A model generated the notes under the pieces. That model searched no databases, was not told the DNA's origin, and was given only the letters and a program-made list of their open reading frames with translations. A DNA stretch of 63,016 nt, the filler included. It is 14 parts of 14 records of this genome, joined end to end, with 100 filler letters (N's around TTAATTAATTAA, not from the genome) between each part and the next. Parts side by side here need not be neighbours in the genome. Positions count along the whole stretch, not along the records: positions 25,844 to 28,958 come from SRR7504441_110111; 13 more parts are not named here. One strand, written 5' to 3'. Position 1 is the first letter of the stretch. Every line of letters begins with the position of its first letter. The position numbers and the translations under genes are program-made. Below are positions 3,001 through 59,982 of this stretch, piece after piece.

Positions 3001-6000
3001 ATTGTATCAGCTTTGTCGTAAAGAAGACGATATGGACCTGGGCAGGTCGGCTCACCAACATCCACTGATGCAATAATTGCTTCGACGCCGCTTAAAAGCA
3101 CAACTCGGCTAAGCTCAGGCAGGTTTGAACGAATGCCGCCAACCACTGCCAGCAGACCAAGCAGCTCTAAGACGGTTTCTTCGTGCTTATCAAAAGAACT
3201 GCAAATCTGGGCAAGATCTACGCTTTTGGGAAGGATACCAGCTGCCACCTGCTCAAATGCAGTCTTTGCTGCTGTAGATATTTTGATGATTGCTTGGAAG
3301 AAGAGCACAACTTGCACTGCTACAGCGTCACCTCCTGTATGGAACGAGTCGGTTACACTTCGGTCGCTGGATGTGCCACTGAACTCGACTGCACCGAGGA
3401 TACGGAGAAGGTCATGCATGATAGCAGTCCATTCAAAGCACTCAGGCAAACAAGGAGCCACTTTCTTGAGCAGCTCCAGGGTGAGTGTGATCATTGCAGC
3501 CTACACACACAGTCTCAACGAATAAGGGCGTCATTGGCATGCCTACCGTGCCATGGTTGACCAACCATGTAAGGAATGGGTAGGCACCAGTCCCGAGCAG
3601 TCTGCTAACTGCTGCTGCACTTGCTGGGCCGCTATGGCACATGCGCAGAAGCAGGACCAAGTATGAGCACACGGTGTGAGGGGTCTGGTTGGCACTAGCG
3701 TCGTTGTACAAATGCGCCCAGCCACCGCAGTGCTCTTCAATGTACAATCTCCCGCTGTTTCCAAATCGAGATCCCAGGGTCCTGCTCGTTTCACATCTCT
3801 TTTTTTCATCAATCCATGATTCCGAAGGTTGGTGAACTGCTTCTGTGATTTGATGCAACGCTGCCGAAAGGATATTTGTGTGTACCTTCCCCACGCCAGT
3901 GCCCAGTCCTGGCATGTAGCCAAGGAGCTTGAAAATCAAGAACGCTACGTTCGGGACCTTCTGTGCCGCTGACCTTTGCCTACTGACTTTTTTCATGAAG
4001 TCGTCATCTGCCAGACGAATACTGGAGCAGTCCAGAGTGATAGTGCAGGGTACACCACATAGCTCAACCATACCTGAGAAGAGGCCATGGTAGCCAATCG
4101 ATTTGTTATCTTTTGACCCAAACCATTGAATCTCAGCCTGAGTCACTTGTTCACAGGTGGCTGTGCAAGCACTTATTGACATATCTCGAGTCAGTTGCAT
4201 CTGTGCATACAAAGTTGGTTGGTCAAATCTCCAGCCTTCCTCCTCAGAGGGGCCCTCCCTCGTTCTGAACAGCAACACAGCCCCGGACCGATTGACCTCC
4301 CATCGGAGGAGGAAGTAGCTTGTATTGTCCTCGTTGACCCTCCCGGACGCAATCAAATTCGGCAAAAGGTCTTCCTCGTGCGAAACTCCTGTTTCCCAGA
4401 GACCTTCAACCTGATCGTCCGAGATGACACCTTCGCGCAGCATAAAACTCCCCATGATCTCTCGAAGTTCGACCAACTCGAAGTGCCGCAACTCACCATC
4501 GTTCATTGCTCCTTTGATAAATTCCTCTAGGCTCAATTTTCCATCAGCATCGGTGTCGTAACCGTGATCAAGGAAAAAGTTGACAAATGATCCATCCTTC
4601 TGGTCGAGCCAGCCATCATGGTTCTTGTCCATTAAAGCAAACACTGTGGCAAAGCAAAACTCCTTGCTGTCAGAGCTGTAGGGTGATGAAGCTTTCGCAT
4701 CTGTGACGAGTCCGGCATTCTTGACTTTAGACTGCATTTTCCAGTACTTATAGCCATCAGGAGCGTCAAAGAGCGTACTGTCAGCAACCCATGACCCATC
4801 AACGTGCTCAAACGCATTATCCCCAGCATGTTTCAGCTGTTGCCATGAGCCGTCAGCTCCAATATCCAGTACGACAGTATTGCCATCCAGCAGGGAACCC
4901 ATGCAGTTGTAAATCCCAGAAATGGCCGTCGCACACCATTCGCCTCCATTGGTGGTCCATTGATCCAGGTCAAACCCGGCTGGCGGAGGAATAGGCAAGC
5001 CCTCAGTTGCTGCCACAGCCGATCTTGGACTGCTGACTTTTAGCGTAGTATGCCACTCTCCTGTGAACGTCTTGTTGCTGCAAGGTTGATTGTTAGTGAG
5101 ACAGATTTGCTCAGCGCACGCCGCTATAGAAGCTTGAAGTTCAGACCACTTCGAGCTTCCATACGTGCCACAGCCAGCAGAAGCCTCGAATGCTTCTCCT
5201 CCTGGTTTGATCATGTAGGTTTGTCGTGCCTTCAAAGTGCCGTCCTGAAATTCTCCTGAGCAGCAGACCCCAAACTTGCCCTTTGGGGTGGTTATCCCCA
5301 GCTCCCACTTGAGATCTGACAGGTCCGCTTCTACCTCTGGAATGTAGCTCGTAGAGTCAAAGTTCCATGGCAGAAGCGGGTTCAGGCGCTTGATGACTGC
5401 GATCCTTTCAAGACTCTCTGCATCACAATCTTTAAATCCTATTCCGAGAATAGACAGTGCACGCAGCTTGATTGCTGGCTGTGACTGGCCCTCAGGTGCC
5501 GCAATGTCGAGCATGCACGACAGAATGCCGTCAAAGAATGCACTCTCCAGGCTAGATCTGATTGTCGAATCTACCACATCCAGTCCATGAGTCGGGTGTT
5601 CTATCTGTTGTAGCTGATCTGCCAGTGACCGGAGCAGGAGTGCTTTAGAGCTGTCGTCTGCACCACAGATCAAAACATTAATGAACCCAAGTCCAATTGC
5701 TCGCAGGATGGCTGTCTCGCAAGCAGATTGGATGGCCTGAAAGATGTCCGACTCTTCAATGTCTGCATCCAGGAAGGACTGGATTGAGCCAGCCACGTCT
5801 TGTGTGCGGCTATTCATTGACAGGTCACTCGCCTGCAAGGTGATCTTAATCAACCAAGTTGGGTGAGCCAATCACGGGGAGATACCTTGATTGGCTTCAT
5901 CAGGGCGCGCAGCCGGCGAGCTGCTGCCATAGACGACCGCACCCGCCCCCAGCCATGTCGAATAGTTGTAGTGGCAGACCGCACAAGGGATGAATCGTCC

Positions 6001-6752: not shown

Positions 6753-6852
6753 NNNNNNNNNNNNNNNNNNNNNNNNNNNNNNNNNNNNNNNNNNNNTTAA
6801 TTAATTAANNNNNNNNNNNNNNNNNNNNNNNNNNNNNNNNNNNNNNNNNNNN
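6753..6852. other. Artificial contig linker (N44-TTAATTAATTAA-N44); identical linkers at 11681-11780, 15640-15739, 19030-19129, 22451-22550, 25744-25843, 28959-29058, 37930-38029, 41781-41880, 46239-46338, 49623-49722, 55103-55202, 59777-59876
   Basis: Fixed 100-nt N spacer with a core that places stops in all six frames; ORFs and base composition break at each one. Confidence 0.98.
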
Positions 6853-6995: not shown

Positions 6996-9900
6996 TCAAA
7001 GGGAAGGTCGAAATATACTACTACTACTACTACTATAAGACTGATTCAACTCCGCGCATCCTCTCGCTCTGTAGGAAGTGGATGGAGTCGTAGACATGTC
7101 GAGCTTGGCGAGGGGCTGCTCGCCGCTATCATTCAGCGCGCTCGCATCGAATTCCCATTTGGCCTCAGGTACATCAAACCTGTCAGCAGAATAGACGGAT
7201 TGCTGTTCGGGTCGTCGCTCTTCTGCGAGCATCGTCATCAGTTGTTCAACGCGCTTGCCATAGATGACTTGTTTGGCGATTGCGACTGCGGCCTCGCTCC
7301 CAGCTCGCATCCCAAGCGTTCTCTGCAAAGAGGTCAGCGCTCCCTGCGCGCGATTGATCCAAGCCAACCAGACGCTGGTGTCGGCATGCAGAGCGGGTGG
7401 CTTGCTGACCCGCGTACGGAGCTCGACTGTTGGTTCGTGCTGCAGTTCGTCTAGCTGATTCTGCAGCCGCTTAACATGGATGACTCTATCTTGGTACCGC
7501 TCCTTCTCGGCCTGCAGCTTCCATACAAGAAGCATTGCCAAAACAACAAGCCAGTACAGCGTGGTGCAGATACTGTTGATCAACTCAAAGTTCTGGATCT
7601 GGCAAAGACGCTTTCCGAATGGGTAGTTGACAGGGTCAGTGGTTGTGATCACCCACTCGTTTAGGCCGTCTCTGCCCATGTACTTGGCCAGCGGGAAAGT
7701 GCGCCATTGCTGCAAAGCAATGGCGCACTGCTCCAAAACCTGGTAGCCAAACAGTCTGAGATACACGAAATCCAACCCGCGTGACACAACTGCGTTTCCC
7801 TTGACTGCACCAGGCAAGCGCGTTCCGTTGAACACACGAAGTCCTACGAGCTTTGAGGAGTAGTACCAAGCCGAAATCAACGCGTCGATGGCTCCAATCA
7901 CTCTGAGCATTGCAGACATGAGCAACGGAACCTTGTTGCAATCACTCTCGTCAGGAGGCCAGACCCACTGGACCTGCTGGACCTGCGTCTCGTCGCCGTT
8001 GGACCATTTCCCAGTAATCTGTTCGGATGAGAGTACCAGGTACATGTCTATAACGCCACAGAGAATCCACAGGCACCCATATACCACCAGAATTCGGCAA
8101 CGGTGGCTGGCTGGCGCATGAAGCTTTGAAGTGAATGCATCTGCAGTGTCTGAAAGGTATCTGAAATGAATTTGCAGGAGCATTTCAAACCCGAGAAAAG
8201 CTGCGATGGCTGCCTCGCAAGCTTGGCACCGGTCCCAGACATTTGTTGGTGTCCCGTAATTTCGCGGATTGAATGGATATGTTATGATCTCGCCAATATC
8301 TGACAGCCAGACACAATAGAAGATCATCTCACTCGCGAGGCTGATTACAGCATACCATCGAGACCATCGTCCAGTCATGGCAAAGAAGAAGACCGGCAGG
8401 AACATGCAGCGACAATAGCGCTGGACCAAAAGCTTGAAAACTGTCAGCCCAGCAACAAATTTCGACGCTTCAACGGTCGCAATGGCATCCCAGAGCCCTA
8501 TTTTTGTGAATGTAAGGAAACAGGCGTAGCCTACGACCGCGGGTACCATGTCAAGAGTCAGCATGAAACTGACCAAAACTCGGAGAGCAAAGAGAACCTT
8601 CTTCCAGACTGCCCATTCGGACCATTCATACGGCACATTTGGAATGAATAATGCCATTTGGGTGCGATTTGTGAGACAAAGCGACGGCCAGAGATTGATC
8701 AGATCCAGCCGGGTCGAATCTAGCGCGACCGCAATATAATTCCGGCCCACAAATTCGGGTTTGAACAGCAAGAGCCGCCAGAAGCAACGTGCCAGCTCTC
8801 GCAGAGAGCGGACAGATAAGCTCATCATTAATGTGCAGTCAGCCAGGCCAAGTGAATGATAGTCGATTGCTCCGTGAGACACATGCTTCATAGTCGAGGC
8901 TATTAGCTTGGTTGTTTCTTCGTCTGTCTCACAATTGGCCAACGCATCTAGTAAGTATAAAACCTCCCGAGGCTCGGCCAAGGTGCTGTGCAATTGCCAC
9001 AAGGGAACTTTCGCGTCCGTTGCGTAAAGCCAGAACCAAGCGGCCTGCTCGATATCAGTCACCCAGCCCGCCATCTGAAGCGAGCCCACACTCAACGAAA
9101 TATGCTGCAAGGCCTGTCTTCTAGTCTCGTCTGCCAACAACCTACCTTTGTACACTGCACAAGCGCCAAGTGCTGCGATTGCCTCCTTGAGCTCTGTTTG
9201 CCGTTCATGAGGCACACGGCCACTGTCTATCAGGCTTCTGATCAAGTTGTAGGCGCCAGAAGCATAGCCTGATAGGTATTTACCACAGATGTAAGAGGCT
9301 ACCAGGCCGGATACGCGGGCCCTGATTACCTCCATATCAACGACAAGCGCATCATCCGATCTTCCAGTCAGGCGAAGCGAGGGAACTGTCACAGCAAGTC
9401 CGTCAAACGCGCCCAGCTCGAGTGTCGGCTTGGCAGTCACTGCTGAGATGACATGGCCTTTGGTCGTCCGAGGGACAGTCTTGGTATTTGGTCGTCCGAG
9501 GGACTGACATGGCGCTGGGGATGGTATTTCGACTATCAACATCAAGCCGTCTTCTGTGCCAGGCGGGAGATCGCTCTGATCCATGATTGGCATTTTGCAT
9601 TCAAGCAAATTGTCTAGATGGAGAGAATCAATCGCTTGCCGGAGCCGGGCCACGTTGAATCCCATATGGACGCTCTCACACCTGGCGTGTGCTTTTGTTG
9701 AGGAATACAGAAGTTCGAAGTCCTCGGCGATGAGCAGGCAGACGATTGCTGACCAGCACCTTTGTGATAGTTCGAAGAGCTCCCTAGCCTCCCTGGTGGT
9801 CTGATGCCACGAGCAAGGTTGCCTCATCACTCGCTTGATGAGCTCGAGACTTTCGCCACTGTCGTCGCTCGCAGTGAGCTGTGACACCATTAGGAGCGAC

Positions 9901-11680: not shown

Positions 11681-11780
11681 NNNNNNNNNNNNNNNNNNNN
11701 NNNNNNNNNNNNNNNNNNNNNNNNTTAATTAATTAANNNNNNNNNNNNNNNNNNNNNNNNNNNNNNNNNNNNNNNNNNNN

Positions 11781-13373
11781 CCCAGCGACCTCTTCCTGTA
11801 ACGACTCGACAAGTTGGACAGACTGGAAACCAGCCGCTACCTCTTCTGCTGCTGTGTTGGCCGCTGCGCTTAGTTCACTTGCCCTCGACTCGGCTGCGCT
11901 CTTCTCCTTGCACAGTTCAGCTACCCTCGATTCAGCAAGGCTATTCGCCTTACACAGCTGCTCTTTCTCCTCCTGCAACCGCCGCACTTGGAGCTGCGAC
12001 TCGTGTAGCCTGGCCTCAGTCCCGCTGTTAGCGGCCTGCAGTTCGACGGTGGCAGCCTGCAGCGTGCCCACCAGCCTCTCCGCCTCGTCTGCCTGGCTCA
12101 GCCGGAGCTCGAGCGTGCTGTTAGCCAGAGTTAATCGGTCCAGCTCCACCCGGAGCGTCTTGACGTGCTGCTCGGAGCTCTGTGAGTTGGTTAGTGTGGC
12201 AGCCAGCCTGTCTTTGAACCCGGCCACTTCCTGCTTGAGAGCATCGATCAGGCAGCCCGCCTTCTTCAGGTAATTGAATAAATCAAACCGCTGCTGCTCC
12301 GCCCCTAGCTTGCCCGACAGCTTCCTGAGCTGCTCGAGCCGCGCGTCCTGGGTCCAGCCATCGAACTGCCCCCGGGCCTCTGGCGAACTCAGCATCCCAG
12401 CCACCAGCCTCGCCTTGGCCTCGAATTCTTCCAAAAGAACCGCCTCCAGTTCACCCAGCTCCGCCGACTTCTGACTCCTCTGAGCGGCCTCGCCCGCGCG
12501 CTTGCGCCACTGGACCAGCCGCCGACGGAGCATCCAGCCGCTCACGCAGCAGTCCACTTGCTCAGTGTAAACCTGTGAGGCCATCCACATATTCCACTTG
12601 ACAAAACTCCGGCCCATTACCCGCTGCTCCCGCTCGGCCATCCGCTCGCCCGCCCCGCACCCCAGCCGCCACTGGCGCACCCGACCGCCCAGCCGCGCCT
12701 GGTCCAGCCAAGTCGCGAGCAGTCTGCGAACCCCCGGGCCAAGCCGCTGCGGTGCCTGCGGGGCAACCGGCCGCTTCGCAGCCGGCTGAGTCCCGGCAGA
12801 ATCGGTCCTGTACCTCGGGCGGTACCCGAGCAAGACATCAGCGTGCCGTCGCCCGCCTGCTACTGCCGACTGGGCCGCCTGGCCGAACGTCCCCCTCGGC
12901 GCGTCGTAAGCGGGCGGCTGCTGCGGCTGGTAAGTGGGCTGCTGCTGCTCGTCGCGCATTAGACACATTGACAGCACCTCCAGGCTGCGCTCAGCCGGCC
13001 GGGTGGTGGCCAGGCGCCGCCAGTCGACGCAGCCGCACCAGAGGCTCCAGGCCTGGGAGAGCTCCATTGCCCGCCAGTGGGCCAGAGCCTCCACCACCGT
13101 GCTGACCGCCACATCGCCCGCGCCCAGCATCGGCCCGGCCTGCTCAGTCAGTCCAGCCAGCTGCCTGCCGTATGCCCGGGCCTCTGCCACGCTATTGCTC
13201 GTGAGCAGGCACCGGGCAATCGCCCCGATCGGGCCGCCGTCGGGCGGCTTCTGGCGGGCGCGGGAGGGGGCCGGATGCGGGGCGGGGCGGTCGGCCGTCT
13301 GCTCGAGTAGCTGCAGGTCCCACTCGATCCTGGACAGGTTGCCCCGCCCGCCGGGCCACAGCCCTCGGGCCAT
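11781..13373 (-). CDS. Hypothetical coiled-coil protein (3'-partial)
   Basis: ATG at 13373 (MARGLWPGG) within ORF 11733-13730; heptad-rich E/L/A/Q C-terminal region. Confidence 0.55.
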
Positions 13374-15508: not shown

Positions 15509-15749
15509 CAGTGACCTGCCCGCCCGGCGCGGCTTTGGAGGCTTTGGAGTCTTGGCGCGCGGAGGGGTCTTGCGAAGCTGCTTGGCGGGAGGGCGGATAC
15601 GATTCCGTTAAGGGTTTAGCCAACGAACGCGTTCACCAANNNNNNNNNNNNNNNNNNNNNNNNNNNNNNNNNNNNNNNNNNNNTTAATTAATTAANNNNN
15701 NNNNNNNNNNNNNNNNNNNNNNNNNNNNNNNNNNNNNNNGCTCCCACTG

Positions 15750-17397: not shown

Positions 17398-19029
17398 ATG
17401 AGCAGTGGCAGCTCGCCCGACGGTCGACAGTCGACCCCGCGCCAGCCAAAAACGTGCGTCCTCATGCCTCCGAGCCGCACTGAAGCTGGGTGGATCAGGG
17501 CGCGGGACAGCGGGCAGTGGTTCGCGAAAACCCTGACGCTCCAGCGGCTGCGGACGCTCTCGGCAGCTCAGGCGGGTGGGGGCTGGGGTCAGGGCGGAGC
17601 GGGGGCAGGCGGAGGTGCTCAAGGAGCTCAAGTTCGGGCAGGTGTCCTGGGTGCTCCAGGGGCTGCTGTTGGTCTGGCTCTACTCGCTGCTGCTCCGATA
17701 CTGGGCCGACCAGTGGCGGGCCCAGCAAGCCGAATCGGACCCGTTCGCCCAGTCCTGGCTCTCGTACCCAGTGGGCTGGACCGTGCTCTACCTCGGGCTG
17801 GTCCGGTCGGTCAGCCGGCACATGGAGACCCGAGCCCCGTTCGAGTCACGGGTGTACGAGGCGATGCTGGTGTACAACCTGTACCAGATCTGCCTCAACA
17901 TGTGGTGCTTTGGGGCCTTCCTGCTCGAGCACCGCCGGCTGGGGATGAGTGTGTGGGGGAACGCTCACGACAAGTCGCCAGCTGGGTGGAGGATAGGGTT
18001 TCTGATCTGGGTGCACTACAACAACAAGTACGTTGACATGCTCGACACGGTGTTCATCCTGATCCGGAAGAAGTACAACCAGATGACCTTCCTGCACTAC
18101 TTCCAAAGGCTGGTGCTCATTTGGTCCTGGTTCTTGGTCACCCGGCTCGGGTGCGGCGGCGACTCGTACTTTGGGGCCATGCTGCACTCGGGCGTCTCCG
18201 TGATCACATACTCTTACTACCTGTTTGCCCAGCTCGACTTGCCGCTGCCCCGGGGCTGGAAGTCGGCCGTGGTCCGGCTGCACATGCTTCAGTTTGCAGT
18301 CTGCGCCGCGCACTCGCTGTTTGTGTTATGGCACGCCAACATGCCTCGCCCGCTCGCGCTCATACAGCTGATCACGATGGCCTGGATGCTCCTCCTCTTT
18401 ATGAACTTTGACGCCGCCGACAAGGAGCCGGCAATTCGGCCGGACCAGTCGGGCCGCCGGCTCACGCTCTCTTTCGACTCGTCTGGCTGGCTCTACTTGT
18501 ACCACTTTGGGGTGCCTGACGCCAGGCCGCTGTGGCTTTATCGGGCTTGTCAGGTGGCTCAGTTTGTAGAGGAATGCCTGGTCCCGCATCAGGACCCGAG
18601 CCTGGCCTACTCCGGCTCGTCCGGCGGAGCGCTTGCGGCCACAGCGCTCGCTGCCCGAGTGCCAATCAAGTCGCTGGTCGAGATGATCGTAGGCTGCCGC
18701 GAGATTTGCAAGTTTAATCCGTTCATGATGCTCCCGTCGGCCGAGCGGGTGCTCCAGGCCCAGGTGCCTGATGACGGGCACACTGTGGCCACCGGCAAGC
18801 TGCGGGTGCTCAACACTCGGATCCTGCTCAAGCCGCCGTTCGTGACCGGGCAGGTGGTCAGCTCGTTCGACTCTCGGGCCGAGCTGATCCGGGCGCTGCG
18901 GGCCTCGTGCCACATCCCGCTGATCGGCGGGCTGCTCCCCTACAAGACCCGGCACGGCTGGATGTACGACGGGATGTTCTGGAGCAGCGCGCTGCTCATC
19001 CCGTGGCGCACGTTCAGGCACTAACCCTA
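17398..19029 (+). CDS. ELO/GNS1-SUR4 elongase-like membrane domain fused to a patatin-like (PNPLA-type) lipase domain; 3'-partial
   Basis: KYVDMLDTVFILIRKK..QMTFLH (ELO), then SFDSSGWLYLYHFGV, SGSSGG, ALRASCHIP and YDG (patatin) in one frame. Introns: 17572-17608 (GC-AG) and 18512-18553 (GT-AG). Confidence 0.8.
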
Positions 19030-19590
19030 NNNNNNNNNNNNNNNNNNNNNNNNNNNNNNNNNNNNNNNNNNNNTTAATTAATTAANNNNNNNNNNNNNNN
19101 NNNNNNNNNNNNNNNNNNNNNNNNNNNNNCCGAGTTACCGAGTTACACAACTATGGATGATTCACACGGCCGAGTTTACTGGCTTGAAGTGGCCGCTGGT
19201 CACCACGACCCTCGTCGAGGGTGCCCCGGCGGATAATCAAGTTCATCAATCCAGCTACGTACGGACAGAGAGCAGTTTGCAGCCCTGAAGGGTGAGATCT
19301 ACGGTGCGTGCCGGCGCAGTATGGCAACGCACGTTCCGGGCCTGGATACATGTACTAGGGCAGGGATTTACCCGGGGAACAGAAGCTGCCAACGAGCTTC
19401 AGTCCCATCTATCAACTGCAGAGCGGGTGCTGAAGGAGCATCTGGACAGTGGTCAGTCTCAGAGCGAACCTGGAGGAAAAGCGGGACCTGCGACGCAAGA
19501 TGCGACTGCATATTAAGGTGCATTTGAAACCTACCCCGGGTATTTATGTCCCTAGGCCTGGCGTACTACGTAGAGCTACTGTACTTTTTG

Positions 19591-22387: not shown

Positions 22388-22760
22388 AGCCTACCGGTAC
22401 ATGGCACCTCTCTCTTTCACAGTATTGTCGTTCTCGCTGAACTTCGACCCNNNNNNNNNNNNNNNNNNNNNNNNNNNNNNNNNNNNNNNNNNNNTTAATT
22501 AATTAANNNNNNNNNNNNNNNNNNNNNNNNNNNNNNNNNNNNNNNNNNNNGGATCGCGTTTCCGGTCTCAAAAATGAGATGAAACAATTTTTCAACACCA
22601 AAAATTCGATATTTTGTGTTTTTTCAGTGTTTTTCTCACTTTTTGTGTTGTCGTGGCTATAGGTTGGGCCAAGTCGGCTGACTCCCTGTTGTGAATCTAG
22701 TAACGATTCCATCCAGGCAAACGCAGATGCCTTGTGCTCCCATGTGCGTACACTCACAAC

Positions 22761-25305: not shown

Positions 25306-25951
25306 CCCCGATGCGCACCTGACAGGTCCCGATGTGCTCGAGATTCAGCGTTTAAAGGAACTCCGTGAGTGGACCAACGGATGAAAAAGCAGTCCTACAA
25401 ATTCGATCGCAAATGCCCCTGGATTGGCTCAGCCCCATCTGCTCCGCTGGTGCGCCCGAGGTGGGCACTGCCGTGCGCCGTGAGACCGTGCGAGGCTTCC
25501 TCAACAACTACCCCGACGACGGGTACGTTTCTGACGTCAGCTTGGCCTCCGACCTGGATGAACTGGACGAGCAGGATGGGGATGGTGAGACCCGCTATGC
25601 CCGCCCGGCGTGCTGAACGGGCCGGCGCAGGTGAGAGCAGCTCGCTGCCTACCACGTGCTGCCCGTGTGGTGGAGCGCGAGAGGGTGCCGGGCGCAAGCG
25701 CAAGCACTTCGCCACCGGCGAGAAGACCGCGGCCCAGGTAAAGNNNNNNNNNNNNNNNNNNNNNNNNNNNNNNNNNNNNNNNNNNNNTTAATTAATTAAN
25801 NNNNNNNNNNNNNNNNNNNNNNNNNNNNNNNNNNNNNNNNNNNCACGAACGAGCTAGTCTTTATTAACTCTAACATGTACCTAAATTAAACGCGCTCTTC
25901 CCAAAATTGTTGTACACGAGTGTTCAGAAATGGATGAAATCCATGTGAACG

Positions 25952-26671
25952 TTATTTCATATCTTGACACGCGTGACGGAACGGCTCGCGGTATTGCGGC
26001 CTTAGCTCGACCTTGGAACCTGTGATTGGGCAAACTAAAGAGTATACCTCGCCTTGGTTCAACCGTGTTGTGGTTGCGCTGGCCTGTTCCCCCCTGGCGT
26101 CAAACTCCTTGATGCACAGCAATTCAACAAAGTATCCTGGAATGGTGACATCCGATTCATTGGCCCAAGACTTGATCCACTCCTTGAATTGAACGATTGT
26201 GTTATGAAGACCAGGGTGTTCAGCTTTCTTACCCTTGACAAACTGCACTTGGTCAAGTGTATAGTATGAGCTGTAGCACCATGCGGGGTTGCCGTGCCGA
26301 TTGTCCTTGGGGTCTCCTGTGAAGAGGACGTCTATGTCTCGTCTACCAATTCCAGTGCTCAGAGTCACTTTCATGCTGGTTGTACGTAAGAATTTTTGCA
26401 TCACGCTCCCTACAGTTTCGATTCCTAGAAGGGCGGTTCTGCAATAGGCCTTGCCTTGCGTCCAGTCAAAGTCAGGTAAAACCACCACGAGGTCAATATC
26501 TGAGCCTTCGACAGCAGTATTCTTGGCCTCTGATCCACCCTTCATTATTCTTGTGGGGTGGAAGATGGAGTGCAGCTGTCGAACCATGGCATCAACTAGC
26601 AAGCCGCTCTCTTGCGGTGCCATGTGCACGGTGGAATCCAAGGCGTGATGAAGGCCCGTGCCCTCCATCAC
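25952..26671 (-). CDS. 2'-5'-oligoadenylate synthetase-like (OAS/cGAS-DncV superfamily) nucleotidyltransferase
   Basis: KGGSEAKNTAVEGSDIDLVV (GS..DxD), third acidic residue in DIDVL, and IPGYFVELLCI matching the OAS PxYxLELL motif; intronless. Confidence 0.85.
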   Translation of the reverse strand: MMEGTGLHHALDSTVHMAPQESGLLVDAMVRQLHSIFHPTRIMKGGSEAKNTAVEGSDIDLVVVLPDFDWTQGKAYCRTALLGIETVGSVMQKFLRTTSMKVTLSTGIGRRDIDVLFTGDPKDNRHGNPAWCYSSYYTLDQVQFVKGKKAEHPGLHNTIVQFKEWIKSWANESDVTIPGYFVELLCIKEFDARGEQASATTTRLNQGEVYSLVCPITGSKVELRPQYREPFRHACQDMK

Positions 26672-26686
26672 GCCTACTGAAAATCC
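26641..26686 (-). promoter_or_regulatory. Candidate -1 programmed ribosomal frameshift signal (G_GAU_UUU, 4-nt spacer, 14-bp hairpin)
   Basis: Minus strand reads gtG GAT TTT cagt AGGCGTGATGGAGG gcacggg CCTTCATCACGCCT. The heptamer is in the collar ORF frame and the -1 frame is the OAS-like frame. Confidence 0.6.
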
Positions 26687-27378
26687 ACTGTCCTCATGAT
26701 AAAGGCGAGGGCCAGGAAAGGAGGGCGAGGCAGTTTCATTTCGATTGGGTCCGGGCTCTTGGAACCAGCTTGTCCTGTGCGACTCTCGAAGCTAGGTACG
26801 TGGGTGACCTGGATAGGGTCTGTCTCAATATCAACGTAGCCGTCAGGGCACTTCTCATAGTGACTCCAATGGCATTGCGAACGCCCCTTCTGGATGCATT
26901 TGCACTGGGTCTTCTTCTCGTGGGTGTAGGCTTTGACTTCCAGCGTTCGTTTGGCCGTCTCGCCAATATTCAACGTCGGTGCTAGGACTGGTATGTCGTT
27001 CCCGTCTCCATCAGCTCGGCGCGGGTGGCTATGCGCAGGCATGTTCTTCTCGGTCAGAATCGCACTGGCCACGGAGCCTCCTCCTGAGGTCAGCACTGCC
27101 AGCTTGTCGGACGTGCCGATGACGAACTTTTCGCGCAAATCAGGGGTGCCCTGGCTGCCATCGCAGAGATGCCATCCGACCGGTATCGCATTCGATGGGC
27201 CAGACCACATCACGATCACACCAGCTGCGAGCCCAGCGTCTTCCGACGCGTTCTTGTACATGCCACATCCACGACAGAAGATGCTACCCGTCTTGGAGTG
27301 CTCGACAAAGTTGTGGGGGTCGCATTTGATGTCAGGAGGCATGCTTCGCTTCATCGTGGCAAGGTGAGGTGTATACAC
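26674..27378 (-). CDS. Phage tail-collar-domain protein with N-terminal Zn-ribbon-like motif
   Basis: GVIVMWSG..IPVGWHLCDGSQGTPDLREKFVIG..GG...LTEKNMPAHSH and C-terminal PPFLALAFIMR are typical collar-family motifs; N-terminal CDPH..IFCRGCG. Confidence 0.88.
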   Translation of the reverse strand: MYTPHLATMKRSMPPDIKCDPHNFVEHSKTGSIFCRGCGMYKNASEDAGLAAGVIVMWSGPSNAIPVGWHLCDGSQGTPDLREKFVIGTSDKLAVLTSGGGSVASAILTEKNMPAHSHPRRADGDGNDIPVLAPTLNIGETAKRTLEVKAYTHEKKTQCKCIQKGRSQCHWSHYEKCPDGYVDIETDPIQVTHVPSFESRTGQAGSKSPDPIEMKLPRPPFLALAFIMRTVDFQ

Positions 27379-27492
27379 GAATCCTGTCCATCAACCGTGG
27401 CGTGTTGAGCACGCGGTCCGTTATTTTTTGTCCGTTATTCTTGTGTGGTTGACCCACTTGACCCGAGCCGCCCGTGACACAGCAATCGAGGC

Positions 27493-28621
27493 ATGGCAGA
27501 AGTGTCTGGCTTTGTGGCGGCAGCCTTGTCGGCGTTCTGCAACGGGTCATTCGCCGCGCTTTCCAAGCTGCCGGCGGTGCGGCGGGCTGAGATCCACCCG
27601 ATCCTGTTCAACACCTACGTCTCCCTCGGGGTGTTTGTCTCATCCTTCCTCGTGGTGCCCTTCCTCCAGTACAACCCAACCTTCGCCGACAACTCGGCCG
27701 CCGGCACCACCTTCGCCTTCGAGCCGCTCGGACTGATCGCCGGCTTTCTGATCGGTGCCCCGCCGGCCGGCTCGGACTCACCGGGGGACAGTCTGCGCTT
27801 TCACGTTCTCGTTCCTGGCGATCCCGCTGGTCGGGCTCTCGATCGGCCAGGGGGTGTGGGGCGGCGCCGCGATCGTGGTCTCATTCGTCGCCGGTCTGAT
27901 CGTGGGCCAGTCCGCGGTGAGCTCGATGCTGATCATCCTGGCCTTGGGGCTGCTGCTGACTGGGGTGGCCGGGATCGCCTTCTGCCAGGACATCTCGGCC
28001 AAGATCACCCAGTGGCTCGGGATGGACGGACCCGCCGGGATAGACAAGCGGTCCCTGCTTCCGACTCCGAGCGGGGAGGACGGCGAAGACGTGGAGTACT
28101 ATCAACTGCCAGACGATCAGACCGAAGAGCCACCGGAGCAGCTGTCGTCGCAGTTCTGCCTCGGGATCACGTTTGCGCTCATTGTCGGGCTGGCCGGCGG
28201 ATCGATCCTGGTGCCCTCCACCTACGTGGGCGACAAGACTTCTGGGCTTGTATTCGTGCCTTCGCTCGGGATTGGGGCTGGCGTGTGTGCGCCGCTGGTG
28301 CCGCTGGTCTACTTTGGGTGCAAGGGCGAAACGAGTCAACTGCGGCTCGAGAATCTGCACCTGGGCAGCTGCCTGTTGCCCGGGCTGCTGGCCGGGCTGG
28401 TGTGGAATCTGGGCAACACAGCAAGTATCTGGGCAATCCCACGGATGGGCTACTCAGTGGCACAGCCAATCATGCAGTGCGCGCTGCTCGTGTCGGCGCT
28501 GTGGGGCGTGTTCGTGTTCAAAGAGATCACCGACCGCTCGACGATAATTGTGCTATTCTCGTCCGGTGCAGTATTGCTCGGAGGAGCTGCTGTGTTAGCC
28601 GTAAGTGTGGACACCAAATAA
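27493..28621 (+). CDS. TMEM144-like / DMT-superfamily multi-pass transporter
   Basis: Intron 27755-27791 joins the two ORFs; two hydrophobic halves separated by an acidic loop; GLLAGLVWNLGN and LVSALWGVFVFKEI motifs. Confidence 0.75.
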
Positions 28622-29518
28622 ACCGCACTACCAGCACAATTAAAATACATCTATCAAATCTGATGATGAGGTCAGACATGAGCATCTACAGTACAAGCAT
28701 CTCCTTGATCCGCAGAGTAACATTATGTTCAATCGGGAGAATAGCTTCTCATATCAAGAAGAAATCAGTCACAATGCGCCAACCAGGAGCTCACTCGTTG
28801 TGCTCGTGCTGCTGTCGATCCAGCGCTTCCCGCCGGGCCATCCAGGTCGGGGTGCTCGGCATGTCCTCCTTCTCTTTCAGCGCGACTGTGGCACCCATCG
28901 CCGCCCCTGTGTCGCACAACTGATCAGACTCGGCCTGCAGCCAGCACTGACCGACCACNNNNNNNNNNNNNNNNNNNNNNNNNNNNNNNNNNNNNNNNNN
29001 NNTTAATTAATTAANNNNNNNNNNNNNNNNNNNNNNNNNNNNNNNNNNNNNNNNNNNNTCTAAGTAGGTTGGATGTAGGTGGTAGTCAAATGAATACATA
29101 TTTGCTTTGGTGAGCGGCCTGAATGATTAAAGTCGGCCCGTGATTCTACAAGTACCATGATTCAACATTCAATAGTAACTAACGTAACTGACTAACGTGT
29201 GCCGGAATCGTTATTGAGCTTACACGTTATGGCAAAGTGAGAATGGAGTCGGTCAAACTTTCATCATCATGCTGCCTTGCCTCTCGTACTTATAATCAAT
29301 GATGTGCTCGCTTGTGATAGGCTTCCACATGTGTCCTGCCCCATGTCATCCCCTGCTATTCGAGCCATTCACCGCCCATCTTCTGCACAGATCCGCCGAG
29401 CGAGAGCGCCACACACGCATCGGCGCTCCCACCGCGCCGACCAGCCATCAGCGCTGATTCCAGCGATAGAAGCTGGCGATCCTGACTCACATACACGATA
29501 TACTCACGAGAAGTTTCC

Positions 29519-37929: not shown

Positions 37930-38029
37930 NNNNNNNNNNNNNNNNNNNNNNNNNNNNNNNNNNNNNNNNNNNNTTAATTAATTAANNNNNNNNNNNNNNN
38001 NNNNNNNNNNNNNNNNNNNNNNNNNNNNN

Positions 38030-41693: not shown

Positions 41694-41880
41694 TCGACCC
41701 CTGGACCAGCTACGAGCTGCAGAGCCAGACAGTGGGCGCCCGGCCCAGCGCGACGGGTCCGGCAGGGTCGCCCGGCCCAGNNNNNNNNNNNNNNNNNNNN
41801 NNNNNNNNNNNNNNNNNNNNNNNNTTAATTAATTAANNNNNNNNNNNNNNNNNNNNNNNNNNNNNNNNNNNNNNNNNNNN

Positions 41881-43875
41881 AGCCCGGCCGAAGAGGCGGA
41901 GCAGCAGCCGAGCCGCGGCTTCCTGATCCAGTGCGGCCACTTTGGTCTGGAGGACCAGGCCGCCGCTCAAGTCCGTGCGAGTCTCCGCGCACTGGGCTGC
42001 CCGGCTCTCCACAGGGCCGCTCTGCCGCAGAAAGGGGTGGCACTTCTTCTTGTTCAGGAGCCTGGGCCCTGCCCTGTCGAGCTCTACGCCAAGCTGGTGG
42101 CCGCGCACGACGCCCCGCCCCCGGAAGTAGGGGGAAATATCCGTGAGTGCCGCCTTGCATGTGCTGATGCGGCTTACGTGCTGCGTGCAGAGTTGCAGCT
42201 GGTTCCATTGCAGCGGCTGGTGCGCACTGGCCATGAGCTCACCCAGGCCACCCGGGAGCTCGCGGCCGCTGTAGGGCTGGAGGAAGGCAGCTCGTACAGC
42301 GTCTCGTACAGCTGCAGGGGCGACGATAAGATCCAGATGAGCGCAGGGGCGCCGGAGCCATGGCTTGACAAGCAGCAGGCGCTGGCTGCAGTGGCGGCAG
42401 GCATAGGGCCCTCGCGCACAGTGGACCTCAAGAGCCCTGGGTGCCTGGTGTGCGTCCGGCTGTGGCGGCGCCCGTCAGACCGCCAGTTTGAGTGCGGATT
42501 GGGGCTGGTGCCCGGACGGCTCTGCAGGCGGACTGGCTCGGGGTTCAAGCTCGCTGGACTGCCGGCCCGGGAGGCGCCGCCCAGGCCGGCAGCCAAGCCC
42601 AAGCCGAAGCGGCAGCGCACCGGCCCCGCGGGGCCGCTCAGCTTGCCCGCTGAGACTGACGCGCGGATGCTCGGGTTGCTCCGGAGAGCGATTGACTCCC
42701 GCGCAGCCGTGCTCGAGCAGCTCCTAGCAGAGGGCACCGACTGCTACCGGTGCACGGCCGGATCTAAAGCGCTGAGCCTATGGCGCCAGGCTCGTGCATG
42801 GGTCGGGGGACGGGCTGGCGGGGCTCACTCTAGACAGGCTCGGGCCAGTGCTGATGCTAGAGCAACACGAGGCAGCCGCCCAGCCCCTCGCGCTCGCCTC
42901 CGCGGTGCGCCAGCCGAGCGCTGAGCGCTGAGCCTGGGCGGCAGGTGGTGGAAGTATACCCGGCCGTGCCGCTGTTCCTCAAGCAGCGGTGCCACAGCAG
43001 CACGAGCGCGCAGCGGGCGGGGCAGCAGGTGTGCCCGTCAGTGCCCGCGGCCCTGACTGAGAGCTCTTGCACAGATAGCAGGCCCAGCGCACGGCGCCGA
43101 CACAGTGACCGTGTGCGAGCGCGAGCTCCGGTTCGAGCTCCGACTGTGCCATGAGGAGCACGTGGGGCTCTGGCTCGACAGCCGACCGGCTCGCAAGCTC
43201 TGTGCGGCTGTGAGCAAAGGGCGGCGGGTGCTCAACCTATTCAGCCACAGCGCCGGGTTTGGGCTGGCAGCGGCGGCGGCAGGGGCGCTCTCCACTGAGA
43301 ATGTGGACAACAAGGCCAGGTGCGCGGGGTGCTGCCGGTCAGGCCCTGAGCGCTGAGGCCGCAGCTGCCACCGCATGGGGCAGGCCAACTACGCAGCCTC
43401 GGGGCTCGGCGCCGCGGTGGACGACCGCAAGACGTTCCACAAGGCTGACGTCGTGAGCATGCTCGACAGGGTGTTGAGCTGTCACCAAAGGTCGGTCTGC
43501 ACCGCATGGCCGCTGAGCATCGTACTGTTCAGGTCGGAGCCGGGGAGTGTCCAGCAGCTCTACGACTTGATCGTATTGGACCCACCGCCGTGCTTTAGCC
43601 GGCACTCGAAGATCAACTTCGTGGCCAAGCAGGGCTACAGCGCACTGCTCGCCCGGTGCTTGCGGGCCACCAAGCCGGCGGCCGGCAGCCTAGTGCTCGC
43701 GGGGCTCAACGCGAGGGCGGTTGCCGATGCGGAGCTCGAGCGGATGATAGCGGAGGCAAGCGCCGAGGCCGGGGTCGGCTGCCGGGTGCTCAAGAAGCTA
43801 GAGGCCGGTGCTGACTTTGCGCCTGGCTGCCCGGACCGACCCACCGCACGGTTCTTTCTTCTCGAATGTGACTAG
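41881..43875 (+). CDS. RlmI/RlmK-like SAM-dependent RNA methyltransferase with an N-terminal THUMP-like region; spliced, 5'-partial
   Basis: TDCYR, HVGLWLDSRPAR, GRRVLNLFSHSAGFGLAAAAAGA..ENVD, YDLIVLDPPPCF and GADF; upstream SYSVSYSCRG..TVDLKSPGCLVCVRL is THUMP-like. Confidence 0.75.
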
Positions 43876-46111: not shown

Positions 46112-46566
46112 CGAGGTTGGTGTCCGGGCTGTTTATTTAGTGAACATTTATTGGGCTGGCCTGTGTGTGTATGTATACATCGAGCCTCCGTATAGACGTT
46201 GCCGGCTCCGTTTGTGATCATTGGCCCTTGTCGCATCGNNNNNNNNNNNNNNNNNNNNNNNNNNNNNNNNNNNNNNNNNNNNTTAATTAATTAANNNNNN
46301 NNNNNNNNNNNNNNNNNNNNNNNNNNNNNNNNNNNNNNGAACCGGCCCGGCGGCATTTATTTTAGGAGATCTTTTCTAAAATGTCATAAAGACTTAATTA
46401 AGTACTAAAAGTGACTGTGCCGCCCCGTCTGCACTGCACCCAGACACAGCAGCCTAGGAGCACAAGGCCCCAGAGGTAGCGCCCAGGGCTTGCCATGCTC
46501 CGGAATCTCCACTCAGGAGATGCCTACTCGTATGGACTTTGGAAACAACGGAAGATTGCCAGTCTT

Positions 46567-49622: not shown

Positions 49623-49722
49623 NNNNNNNNNNNNNNNNNNNNNNNNNNNNNNNNNNNNNNNNNNNNTTAATTAATTAANNNNNNNNNNNNNNNNNNNNNN
49701 NNNNNNNNNNNNNNNNNNNNNN

Positions 49723-50178: not shown

Positions 50179-50934
50179 CTAATGTAAATTAATACTATCA
50201 GATAAGTACATACAGGCTAGCATTGTGAAAACGTAAGCTTGTAAGAATGCTATACCAACTTCTAAACCTGTAACAGCAAGTACAACAGAAAGTGTTAAGA
50301 ACGATCCAAAAAGACCTAAAGCTCCTGCAGATAACATTGCCCAAGCAAAACCTGCCAGAATCTTTAAAAGAGAGTGACCCGCCATCATATTTGCAAATAA
50401 TCGTACAGATATAGAAATGACTTGAAAAAAGTAGGATAAAATTTCAATACCAATTAAGAATGGCATCATAGCAAAAGGAGCTCCTGATGGCATAAACCGA
50501 CTAAAAAAATGGATTCCATGGTGTCGAAGTCCAATAATCATAGCACCAAACCAAATTATGATTCCTAATGTAAAAGTAACTGCCAAGTGACTTGTTACAC
50601 AAAAACTATAAGGGACCATACCGACTAAATTTGAAAATAATATAAAAGAGAACAAGAAAAAGTAAAAAGGGAAATATCGGGCTGCTAATTTTTCATCCCC
50701 AACCATATTTTCTACTGTTTCTAAGATGAATTCATATAAAGACTCTACACCAGATTGCCAGTTACTAGGAATAATTGTAGCTTGATACATAGCTAGGCTA
50801 TAAATCAGATACATTAGATCACAACCAATTATCATAAAAAGACTAGAGTTAGTAAAAGATAAACAAGTATTTCCAAATTCAATGCTTATAAGTGAGCTTA
50901 CACAAAATTGTTCTAAGGGTGAATGTAAAAACAT
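50179..50934 (-). CDS. atp6: ATP synthase F0 subunit a
   Basis: SPLEQF, NLVGMVPYSF, ISISVRLFANMMAGH, LEVGIAFLQAYVF. Confidence 0.98.
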   Translation of the reverse strand: MFLHSPLEQFCVSSLISIEFGNTCLSFTNSSLFMIIGCDLMYLIYSLAMYQATIIPSNWQSGVESLYEFILETVENMVGDEKLAARYFPFYFFLFSFILFSNLVGMVPYSFCVTSHLAVTFTLGIIIWFGAMIIGLRHHGIHFFSRFMPSGAPFAMMPFLIGIEILSYFFQVISISVRLFANMMAGHSLLKILAGFAWAMLSAGALGLFGSFLTLSVVLAVTGLEVGIAFLQAYVFTMLACMYLSDSINLH

Positions 50935-55102: not shown

Positions 55103-55449
55103 NNNNNNNNNNNNNNNNNNNNNNNNNNNNNNNNNNNNNNNNNNNNTTAATTAATTAANNNNNNNNNNNNNNNNNNNNNNNNNNNNNNNNNNNNNNNNNN
55201 NNGGAGAGCGCCGAGTAGACACTATTCCATTGCGTGCGATGCGTGCGCAGGTACTTGTTGGAAAACGCCGGCACTTTCGGCACAATGGGTTAGTTGGTAA
55301 TTGTTGGGTGGGTTCGAGACCAATGGGGACCTCGTAGACCGCAACTAAGCGCCCCTATATAGCTGGTCGCCCGGACCCGCAAGGCAAGCCTTTTTGTTTT
55401 AAATAAAAATTTCCGCAACCCTGTCCAGAACCTGTGTTAGTTGCACAGG

Positions 55450-59769: not shown

Positions 59770-59982
59770 GCGCCGANNNNNNNNNNNNNNNNNNNNNNNN
59801 NNNNNNNNNNNNNNNNNNNNTTAATTAATTAANNNNNNNNNNNNNNNNNNNNNNNNNNNNNNNNNNNNNNNNNNNNCCGTACCATACATCTCAGCAAAGG
59901 TCCAGTACATCGCTTGGCGCGTTCTGGACGGCCGAGGAGGGTGTTGGTGTTGGTGTTAGTGTTGGTCCCGACCGAGCACGCA

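Follow-up and report, generated by a model that had tools for sequence, protein, structure and literature searches.

A phage tail collar-like ORF abuts an OAS/cGAS-like nucleotidyltransferase ORF whose start codon lies in a hairpin in marine protist DNA

The RNA2 of pea enation mosaic virus, an umbravirus, carries a -1 ribosomal frameshift site that reads G_GAU_UUU_UGG_UAG, in which the slippery heptamer is followed by a 5-nt spacer and the stop codon sits at the base of a stimulator that includes a bulged stem and a long-distance pairing. The same order of elements is found in relatives of this virus, and the -1 signals of the dianthovirus red clover necrotic mosaic virus and of barley yellow dwarf virus belong to the same group of comparisons. 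An arrangement of this order, with the identical heptamer GGAUUUU that is again followed by one sense codon and then UAG, occurs at the junction of two ORFs in the DNA of a cellular eukaryote. Unlike the viral sites, which have 5-nt spacers, it has a spacer of 4 nt, its stimulator would be a simple 14-bp hairpin that shows no sign of the bulged stem or the long-distance pairing, and the ORF downstream has a conserved ATG of its own inside the stem.

The first of the two ORFs encodes a protein related to the phage tail collar / microcystin-dependent protein (MdpB-like) family, of which it keeps both the core GVIVMWSG...IP.GW.LCDG..GTPDL and the C-terminal PP[FY].ALA[FY]IM[KR]. It departs from its relatives in an N-terminal stretch of 45 residues with Cys/His pairs, in a unique insert in the middle and in being encoded on a eukaryotic contig. 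The second ORF encodes a nucleotidyltransferase (NTase) that shares catalytic motifs and fold matches with the Pol-beta-fold group of OAS, cGAS, CD-NTase and DZF proteins, but is only 239 aa long and stays far under the family thresholds in all its scores. The stop codon of the first ORF and the start codon of the second are 5 nt apart, and the start is buried in a stem that covers the upstream stop, an arrangement to be set beside translational coupling by termination-reinitiation, in which ribosomes arriving from upstream open a stem that masks the start codon, and beside the overlapping stops and starts of some RNA viruses; the known clear cases are bacterial, phage or viral, and the junction differs from these systems in its long upstream ORF. 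The reading preferred here, held tentatively at a probability of roughly 0.45, is that the locus comprises two complete and separately initiated genes, the NTase being made from its own ATG and the hairpin masking that start.

The stretch of DNA analysed (the window, 63,016 nt) consists of 14 short contigs joined by linkers of the form N44-TTAATTAATTAA-N44, and the joining of contigs by such linkers is a practice described in 10.1101/2023.02.08.527609. Because the window is a stitched draft, nothing beyond 25844-28958 counts as true genomic context for the junction. The setting is defined by the following features:

25744-25843, strand not applicable: artificial linker of 100 nt (N44-TTAATTAATTAA-N44), read from the sequence
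25844-28958: contig carrying the junction, 3.1 kb
25860-25865, minus strand: AATAAA of putative function, lying 87 nt past the NTase stop, read from the sequence
25952-26668, minus strand: OAS/cGAS-like NTase ORF, ATG at 26668, stop TAA at 25954-25952, 239 aa
26677-27378 (to 26674 with the stop), minus strand: collar-domain ORF, 234 codons from GTG 27378 or 226 codons from the first ATG at 27354
27493-28621, plus strand: TMEM144-family gene, the divergent neighbour, whose relatives carry PF07857 (best relative 64% identical)
28959-29058: next linker after the contig of the locus

The TMEM144 gene is interrupted by a 37-nt GT-AG intron (27755-27791), which marks the contig as eukaryotic nuclear DNA, and the source of the collar/NTase pair is the nuclear DNA of an uncultured marine protist. 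The contig holds a single region of true intergenic DNA, 138 nt in length. The promoter-like repeat AATAACGGAC has two copies in this divergent intergenic region and none elsewhere, a distribution that is not above chance.

The collar protein matches PHROG tail collar fiber profiles with E-values of 1e-13 to 1e-14, and its alignment to one of them, phrog_1800 (E 1.1e-13), extends to the last position of the profile (545/545). Together with 11 relatives it has 24 invariant columns, and on these alignments its relatedness to the collar family is clear despite a score against Pfam Collar (PF07484) of 18.9 bits, which is under the threshold of 24. All 11 aligned relatives, which were picked from 39 matches, end 1-2 residues past the motif ALA[YF]IM[KR] and the protein described here ends 5 residues past it; judged by this comparison, it is at the natural end of its family that the collar protein stops. 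It has no close orthologue, the best match covering 29% of the query at 53% identity, and no collar match lies on a contig of 3552 nt, the size of the single contig that carries the closest NTase orthologue, P0001. Both observations count weakly against conservation of the pairing with the NTase, which looks lineage-specific.

The NTase matches PF01909 with an E-value of 1.4e-7 and its family profile matches OAS1 with an E-value of 3e-5. The residues of its GGS motif (G45, G46 and S47), of its DxD motif (D58 and D60) and its third Asp (D114) are invariant in 7/7 aligned sequences. An AlphaFold model of the protein has a mean pLDDT of 80.6, falls below 50 over residues 1-17 and begins its first helix at residue 19; searched with Foldseek it retrieves the DZF domain of NF90/NF45, OAS1 and CdnC, with TMq values of 0.54-0.65 and an rmsd of 5-6 Å. 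The Pfam OAS1_C domain was not detected in the NTase and is present in two distant relatives, and CBASS cyclase models match it weakly (25.3 bits vs a threshold of 200). The close relatives of the NTase are marine sequences, some of which are fused to an Alpha_kinase domain.

Several comparisons bear on where the NTase begins. Its ATG at 26668, which has a G at both -3 and +4, aligns with Met1 of P0001 (61% identical), and the orthologue fragment P0066 begins at the same Met; alternative starts are a GTG at 26671, given in the ORF listing, and a further ATG in frame at 26623. Among the 23 relatives with an E-value of 1e-10 or lower, every match begins at residue 1-65, which leaves no room for an N-terminal domain. 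The Collar domain was found in none of ten scanned NTase relatives with longer N-terminal parts, a set that did not include the 2725-aa P0098, and the extra domains of the relatives are C-terminal, comprising Alpha_kinase in 5 of 10 scanned, NUDIX in one and potato inhibitor in one. No collar-NTase fusion was found among 51 NTase relatives. A search of viral contigs for orthologue DNA returned no relative, and genome contigs yielded six distant bacterial NTase loci. In metagenome contigs 16 loci were found, which all match the catalytic core of the NTase only (34-73% identical over 30-84 residues), and none of them (0/16) encodes a collar relative. A literature search that paired phage tail collar with oligoadenylate synthetase found no paper. 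Compared with their families in this way, both ORFs are complete, and the NTase, which has its own aligned start Met and no fused counterpart among its relatives, is not seen to depend on a frameshift.

At the junction itself the minus strand of the collar ORF ends GTG GAT TTT CAG TAG, and the elements are arranged as follows:

26690-26628, minus strand: extended imperfect helix, -35.3 kcal/mol
26687-26682 and 26640-26635, minus strand: two copies of the 6-nt direct repeat TGGATT flanking the hairpin, read by eye
26686-26680, minus strand: heptamer G_GAT_TTT, in phase with the collar ORF
26679-26676, minus strand: 4-nt spacer between heptamer and hairpin, lengthening to 5 nt on opening of the terminal A-U pair
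26676-26674, minus strand: TAG stop codon of the collar ORF
26675-26641, minus strand: hairpin with a 7-nt loop and 14 bp, of which one is G-U
26673-26669, minus strand: 5-nt gap between the collar TAG and the NTase ATG

The hairpin takes in the AG of the collar stop codon and its 5' arm contains the ATG at 26668-26666. Its 4-nt spacer is to be compared with the 5-9 nt expected between heptamer and structure in a -1 signal. Upstream of the NTase start its frame stays open for 40 codons and downstream for 239, so a -1 slip at the heptamer reads past the UAG into that frame. An earlier note on this DNA had described the junction as a candidate programmed frameshift site, and its account of the layout was borne out, from the phase of the heptamer, the 4-nt spacer and the hairpin that overlaps the UAG and buries the AUG to the open frame entered by a -1 slip; its statement that G_GAU_UUU serves as a viral -1 site likewise agrees with the use of the identical heptamer by pea enation mosaic virus RNA2.

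The hairpin by itself has a predicted stability of -25.7 kcal/mol. Its 81-nt context reaches -43.3 kcal/mol, whereas 200 shuffles average -22.5 and none of them was as stable (z -6.49). When both strands were scanned in 41-nt windows, 40,780 in all (mean -8.41, sd 4.45), the locus ranked 10th in stability. The window contains no second copy of the hairpin, and an Rfam search of the contig, hairpin included, matched no family. The chance of meeting such a combination in the window was counted with a loose heptamer, in which positions 1 and 2 are alike and positions 4-6 are AAA or TTT, and a structure 3-9 nt after it; structures of -18 kcal/mol or better follow such a heptamer at 14 of 121,472 positions, and those of -24 kcal/mol or better at 4. 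In the extended helix the outer pairing joins GUGGA (26688-26684) to UCCAC (26635-26631), so that the heptamer is itself partly paired. P0001 and P0066 are 74% identical overall and agree at 9/9 residues over MRGTDPDHA, the stretch equivalent to the hairpin, after which the next ~18 residues diverge and contain gaps. As residues 1-17 are modelled with a pLDDT below 50, the conservation of the first nine codons may be easier to explain by RNA than by the protein fold, and on this comparison the orthologues may share the RNA hairpin. A candidate compensatory change is suggested by E3R together with L7P, which would convert pair 26664-26652 from A-U to G-C.

If the junction worked as its viral counterparts do, ribosomes would pause on G_GAU_UUU at the hairpin and some would slip by -1 past the UAG to yield a collar-NTase fusion, an explanation that is regarded as unlikely. 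Its products, also doubtful, would be the 226-234-aa collar protein and a fusion of ~475 aa, with the NTase possibly also made alone; the fuller version, in which an umbravirus/luteovirus-type signal gives free collar protein and fusion and the hairpin additionally gates initiation of the free enzyme, is likewise thought improbable. In favour of frameshifting, the phase of the heptamer is right and the -1 frame open, the heptamer is proven in pea enation mosaic virus RNA2 with the elements in the same order, the hairpin is far more stable than its shuffles and few positions in the window offer such a combination, an ordinary intron is unable to join the frames, and a frameshift would account for the expression of a second ORF that begins 5 nt behind a long one. 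However, both ORFs are complete members of their families and the start Met of the NTase is common to two orthologues, the 51 NTase relatives include no fusion and the 23 strong ones all have the NTase at the N-terminus, and the lack of a close collar orthologue makes the pairing look lineage-specific. The partial pairing of the heptamer in the extended helix counts against slippage as well, and so does the short spacer, since in pea enation mosaic virus RNA2 a spacer shortened to 2 nt reduces frameshifting 11-fold, a length of 4 nt having been untried there. Furthermore, the scanning of very many windows yields look-alikes by chance. As the relatives suggest that the NTase starts on its own, frameshifting is possible and unproven at this locus; the anatomy agrees very well with a -1 signal, and the comparative evidence leans against it.

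A fusion mRNA could also arise if splicing removed the junction, either through an atypical GT-AG intron or through removal of a 47-nt segment bounded by the TGGATT repeat, and this is considered very unlikely. Only three GT-AG candidates on the minus strand keep the C-terminal motif of the collar protein:

26688-26663, minus strand: 26-nt candidate
26677-26607, minus strand: 71-nt candidate
26688-26609, minus strand: 80-nt candidate

All three have GAG acceptors. Excision of 47 nt, from a point in one TGGATT copy to the corresponding point in the other, would join the frames by hand arithmetic, and the hairpin brings the ends of this segment together. Non-conventional introns of euglenids are bounded by repeats and have their ends brought together by pairing. 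All four removals would restore one open frame, the 71-nt and 80-nt versions would join the collar end to S/GLLVDAMVR, where the conservation of the NTase and its first helix begin, and other same-strand ORFs of the window that abut prove to be exons with a mini-intron between them. Against this, the introns here, found in part by a motif-guided search, are 31-45 nt long and have a CTCAC branch-like motif, and the candidates have no CTCAC near the 3' end; the earlier note had held that no mini-intron of the usual length bridges the junction, and candidates of 26, 71 and 80 nt agree with this. The supposed intron would moreover encode the conserved N-terminus shared with P0001 and P0066, and the 47-nt segment is without GT-AG ends. 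An organelle contig in the window, which has 30% GC and carries rpl2, does not fit a euglenozoan, an argument that is weak because the contigs are perhaps not all from one organism. A search for introns that merge ORFs gave no excess of GT-AG over control dinucleotides and was uninformative. Spliced-leader trans-splicing at TTTTCAG/TAG was also considered from the sequence and set aside for want of testable support.

The junction may instead be functionless, having arisen by a 1-nt error or mutation in an in-frame fusion, for example in the length of the T run, or through the decay of a recently acquired cassette; this is judged quite unlikely. The locus does lie on a 3.1-kb contig of a fragmentary, linker-joined draft, and metagenome contigs of the same organism (four short pieces from three marine runs at a depth of 2-3) cover only 26788-27300 and reach neither the junction nor the T run. 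GC3 is 0.575 in the NTase and 0.655 in the collar ORF, lower than the 0.80-0.85 of the TMEM144 gene on the same contig, which fits foreign or recently acquired DNA. Variants of the collar ORF in the metagenome contigs comprise one synonymous and four non-synonymous changes, so that 4/5 alter an amino acid, a number too small to weigh and at a depth too low to speak of selection. On the other side the fusion is absent from all relatives, and the stop codon falls at the natural end of the collar family and the ATG at the natural start of the NTase orthologues, a coincidence that a random indel would not produce. The catalytic residues of the NTase are also intact. Runs of four T are not error-prone on most sequencing platforms. 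An MDA chimera and a transposon footprint were likewise set aside as origins of the junction, again for want of testable support.

The preferred reading is concerned with the start-masking hairpin. The collar and NTase ORFs would be two complete genes placed head to tail on a small piece of protist nuclear DNA, and the NTase would be translated from the ATG at 26668 and not by way of a frameshift fusion. The hairpin would be part of the NTase coding sequence, at its 5' end, and, by holding the start codon in a 14-bp stem, would limit translation of the NTase; such gating of initiation is suggested by the position of the ATG in the stem. Since the stem covers the collar stop codon, a ribosome that ends the collar ORF must melt it, and on terminating it could free a small subunit 5 nt from the newly exposed AUG, leading to a termination-coupled restart. 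Alternatively, ribosomes could arrive on a short-leader transcript that starts inside the collar ORF, and either of the two routes may be the source. Leaky scanning cannot reach the NTase ATG on a collar transcript, as 16 ATGs lie upstream of it. Eukaryotic ribosomes restart poorly after an ORF of 226 codons unless a special tethering element is present, and no tethering motif was identified by eye upstream of the collar stop.

Besides the poor restart and the ATGs upstream, two further features run counter to the start-masking reading, namely that the layout is that of a proven -1 frameshift site and rare by chance, and that the gap is too short to hold a promoter between the genes. On the latter point the earlier note had argued that the 5 nt between stop and ATG leave no space for a separate promoter; the gap is as described, but the argument drawn from it is weak, because promoters may be located within an upstream ORF and the one true intergenic region of this contig measures just 138 nt.

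Were the start-masking reading true, the locus would be a rare eukaryotic instance of bacterial-style stop-start coupling, linking a phage-derived collar protein to an immune-type NTase, and would suggest that the two proteins act together. Were frameshifting true, the site would be among very few cellular -1 sites that are not derived from retroelements, and a protist enzyme of OAS/cGAS type would possess a signal with a layout indistinguishable from that of plant RNA viruses; a likely immune-type enzyme under recoding would surprise specialists in the field. Under either reading the junction, with its 60 nt, makes a compact element that lends itself to testing. No AATAAA lies between the collar and NTase ORFs, and the sole AATAAA, after the NTase ORF, would fit a single mRNA that spans both.

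The upstream ORF, which encodes a protein resembling phage tail collar proteins (the collar ORF), and the downstream ORF, which encodes an OAS/cGAS-like nucleotidyltransferase (NTase), meet at a junction with the following features:

27378-26677, minus strand: collar ORF of 234 codons, ending in GTG GAT TTT CAG TAG
27354, minus strand: first ATG of the collar ORF
26686-26680, minus strand: heptamer G_GAT_TTT, in phase with the collar ORF
26675-26641, minus strand: hairpin of 14 bp (one G-U) with a 7-nt loop, 4 nt from the heptamer
ATG 26668-26666 to 25952, minus strand: NTase ORF of 239 codons

Both the AG of the collar stop codon and the NTase ATG at 26668-26666 lie inside the hairpin, and the in-phase heptamer, short spacer and stem over stop and start that the earlier note describes are present at the coordinates given there. 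By itself the hairpin has a computed folding energy of -25.7 kcal/mol, and with its surroundings, 81 nt in all, the value falls to -43.3 kcal/mol, whereas 200 shuffled sequences average -22.5 ± 3.2 (z -6.49; 0/200 as stable). In the minimum-free-energy fold GUGGA (26688-26684) pairs with UCCAC (26635-26631) and lengthens the helix outwards, so that the heptamer too becomes part of an extended imperfect palindrome (-35.3 kcal/mol). The hairpin sequence has a single copy in the window and no match in Rfam.

By sequence comparison the upstream protein has its relatives among phage tail collar fibers and microcystin-dependent proteins. Its PHROG matches have E values of 1e-13 to 1e-14, with the phrog_1800 profile covered to its last position, and it has 24 invariant columns in common with 11 relatives; the Pfam Collar score is 18.9 bits, under the threshold of 24. 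In all 11 aligned relatives, taken from 39 hits, an ALA[YF]IM[KR] motif is followed by one or two residues to the end, and the window protein ends five residues past it. No close collar orthologue was found among the 39 hits in the database searched, and none of the collar hits lies on a contig sized like that of P0001, the closest NTase orthologue, which weakly suggests that the collar-NTase pairing is not shared. Near its N-terminus (residues ~14-40; window 27240-27340) the collar protein carries a C..H...C..C pattern (KCDPH...CRGCG) that is not present in the relatives and may form a small zinc-binding module.

The downstream protein belongs to the Pol-beta-fold nucleotidyltransferases, with a match to PF01909 (E 1.4e-7) and an invariant GGS, DxD and third Asp. 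The OAS-like label given to it earlier holds for fold and motifs, in that the family profile retrieves OAS1 (E 3e-5) and the AlphaFold model (mean pLDDT 80.6) resembles the NF90/NF45 DZF domain, OAS1 and bacterial CdnC (TMq 0.54-0.65), with weak matches to CBASS cyclase models, but the protein is not shown to belong to OAS proper. Partner domains in the relatives are always C-terminal to the NTase: five of the ten scanned carry an Alpha_kinase domain (P0069, P0073, P0076, P0079 and P0085, E 1e-44 to 1e-49) and others a NUDIX or potato-inhibitor-I protease inhibitor domain. Such effector-type fusions point to a eukaryotic family, probably of signalling or immune type, and this NTase-effector family looks undescribed.

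Comparative evidence says that each ORF is complete alone. A search of 1.84 billion representatives yielded 51 NTase relatives, and in all 23 with E values of 1e-10 or below the match starts at residue 1-65; none of ten scanned relatives with longer N-terminal parts, a set that leaves out one 2725-aa protein, contains a Collar domain. The ATG at 26668 aligns to Met1 of P0001 (61% identity), and the second close orthologue, the fragment P0066, has the same start. P0001 and P0066 are identical over their first nine residues (9/9; 74% overall) and beyond these diverge with gaps. The hairpin corresponds to the codons for these nine residues, and residues 1-17 of the NTase model have pLDDT values below 50, the first helix beginning at residue 19. 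From this conservation and low model confidence we infer that the constraint on the first nine codons acts on the nucleic acid rather than on the protein fold. The differences E3R and L7P between window and orthologue are those expected if pair 26664-26652 went from A-U to G-C, a candidate compensatory change read from protein sequences.

The proposed reading, with a probability of about 0.45, is that NTase translation begins at the gene's own ATG, a start on which the hairpin acts; the ribosomes would be supplied either by termination on the collar ORF or by a short-leader transcript. Genuine -1 frameshifting at the junction, as put forward in the earlier note, is unlikely. A slip would give the readable product TVDFSVGVMEG... 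since the 40 codons 5' of the NTase start contain no stop in that frame, and the layout is that of a proven viral site: pea enation mosaic virus RNA2 has G_GAU_UUU_UGG_UAG with a 5-nt spacer, a length common to red clover necrotic mosaic virus, barley yellow dwarf virus and six umbraviruses, and in RNA2 it matters that a stop lies at the base of the stimulator (PMC4737148, PMC5009743). Moreover, a eukaryote needs some route to an ORF whose start follows a long ORF by 5 nt and is preceded by 16 ATGs. However, the NTase ORF brings its own conserved start, each protein is complete, no fusion occurs among the relatives found, and the spacer is one nucleotide short, being 4 nt in the window where the virus, with the same heptamer, has 5 nt. 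Initiation at the NTase ATG and frameshifting are compatible, as one stem could gate the ATG and also stimulate low-level slippage.

Ranked against 41-nt windows from both strands (n=40,780; mean -8.41, sd 4.45 kcal/mol), the hairpin is the tenth most stable locus, and the other loci in the top ranks lie mostly inside GC-rich ORFs. A loose heptamer type that includes GGATTTT, with structure 3-9 nt downstream at -18 kcal/mol or better, is found at 14 of 121,472 positions, four of them at -24 kcal/mol or better, a rarity that makes the combination exactly at an ORF junction improbable for one window. In a scan of very many windows it would still be expected by chance, and chance or something not thought of takes the probability left over by the readings considered here. 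Long ORFs contain further very stable hairpins at 7693-7735 and 42556-42596; a perfect 14-bp palindrome (-28.2 kcal/mol) is found in a 1558-codon ORF and a hairpin of -34.1 kcal/mol in the ORF at 42037-42924.

The contig at 25844-28958, on which the collar/NTase locus lies, is eukaryotic. Its third gene, encoding a TMEM144-family transporter on the plus strand, has as nearest named relatives those of chlorarachniophytes (43% identity) and as best matches marine sequences (64%), and short pieces of the collar ORF are found at 95-99% or more identity in three marine metagenome runs. ORFs on other contigs, too, are connected by mini-introns (31-45 nt; two of exactly 37 nt) that have CTCAC 6-12 nt from the 3' end and in some cases end in GAG; exact frame restoration was examined for the first two listed (27755-27791 and 3474-3510):

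27755-27791, plus strand: 37-nt GT-AG intron of the TMEM144 gene, removal of which restores the frame
3510-3474: mini-intron of 37 nt
2888-2844: mini-intron of 45 nt
12561-12597, 17951-17981, 56751-56791 and 60743-60782: short GT-AG introns
26688-26663 (26 nt), 26677-26607 (71 nt) and 26688-26609 (80 nt), minus strand: GT-AG candidates at the junction
26687-26682 and 26640-26635, minus strand: 6-nt direct repeat TGGATT on either side of the hairpin

That unusual splicing joins the two frames is very improbable. As the earlier note anticipated, the stop is not bridged by any GT-AG or GC-AG intron in the 30-60 nt range that would leave the conserved collar C-terminus intact, and the three GT-AG candidates all have GAG acceptors and lack the CTCAC motif. 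Loss of the 47 nt between equivalent points of the repeat does, when read by hand, join ...RTVD to STVHMAPQ... in frame, but this segment has no GT-AG ends and encodes the conserved NTase N-terminus.

It is unlikely that the junction results from an indel or an assembly error, or that the locus is a cassette acquired and now decaying. GC3 is 0.655 in the collar ORF and 0.575 in the NTase ORF against 0.80-0.85 in the TMEM144 gene on the same contig, a difference in keeping with recent acquisition or with another class of expression.

The window is a concatenation of 14 contigs (3.1-8.9 kb; GC 30% to 63%), joined by thirteen 100-nt linkers of the form N44-TTAATTAATTAA-N44:

6753-6852, 11681-11780, 15640-15739, 19030-19129, 22451-22550, 25744-25843 and 28959-29058
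37930-38029, 41781-41880, 46239-46338, 49623-49722, 55103-55202 and 59777-59876

Stitching draft contigs with linkers that carry stop codons in all six frames is standard practice (10.1101/2023.02.08.527609). Gene neighbourhood across a linker is therefore without meaning, and the pyruvate kinase gene "next door" lies on a separate contig from the collar/NTase locus. The 30% GC contig at 49723-55102 carries ATP synthase A chain (50179-50934, minus strand) and ribosomal protein L2 (53309-54115, plus strand) genes and probably derives from an organelle genome, binned together with nuclear contigs. Between the divergent collar and TMEM144 genes, in a stretch of 138 nt, lies a tandem AATAACGGAC...AATAACGGAC (27416-27439, minus strand), which has no other copy in the window and does not exceed chance expectation. 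An out-of-frame ATG at 27389-27391 (minus strand), 37 nt 5' of the collar ATG, would if transcribed open a short upstream ORF running over the collar start.
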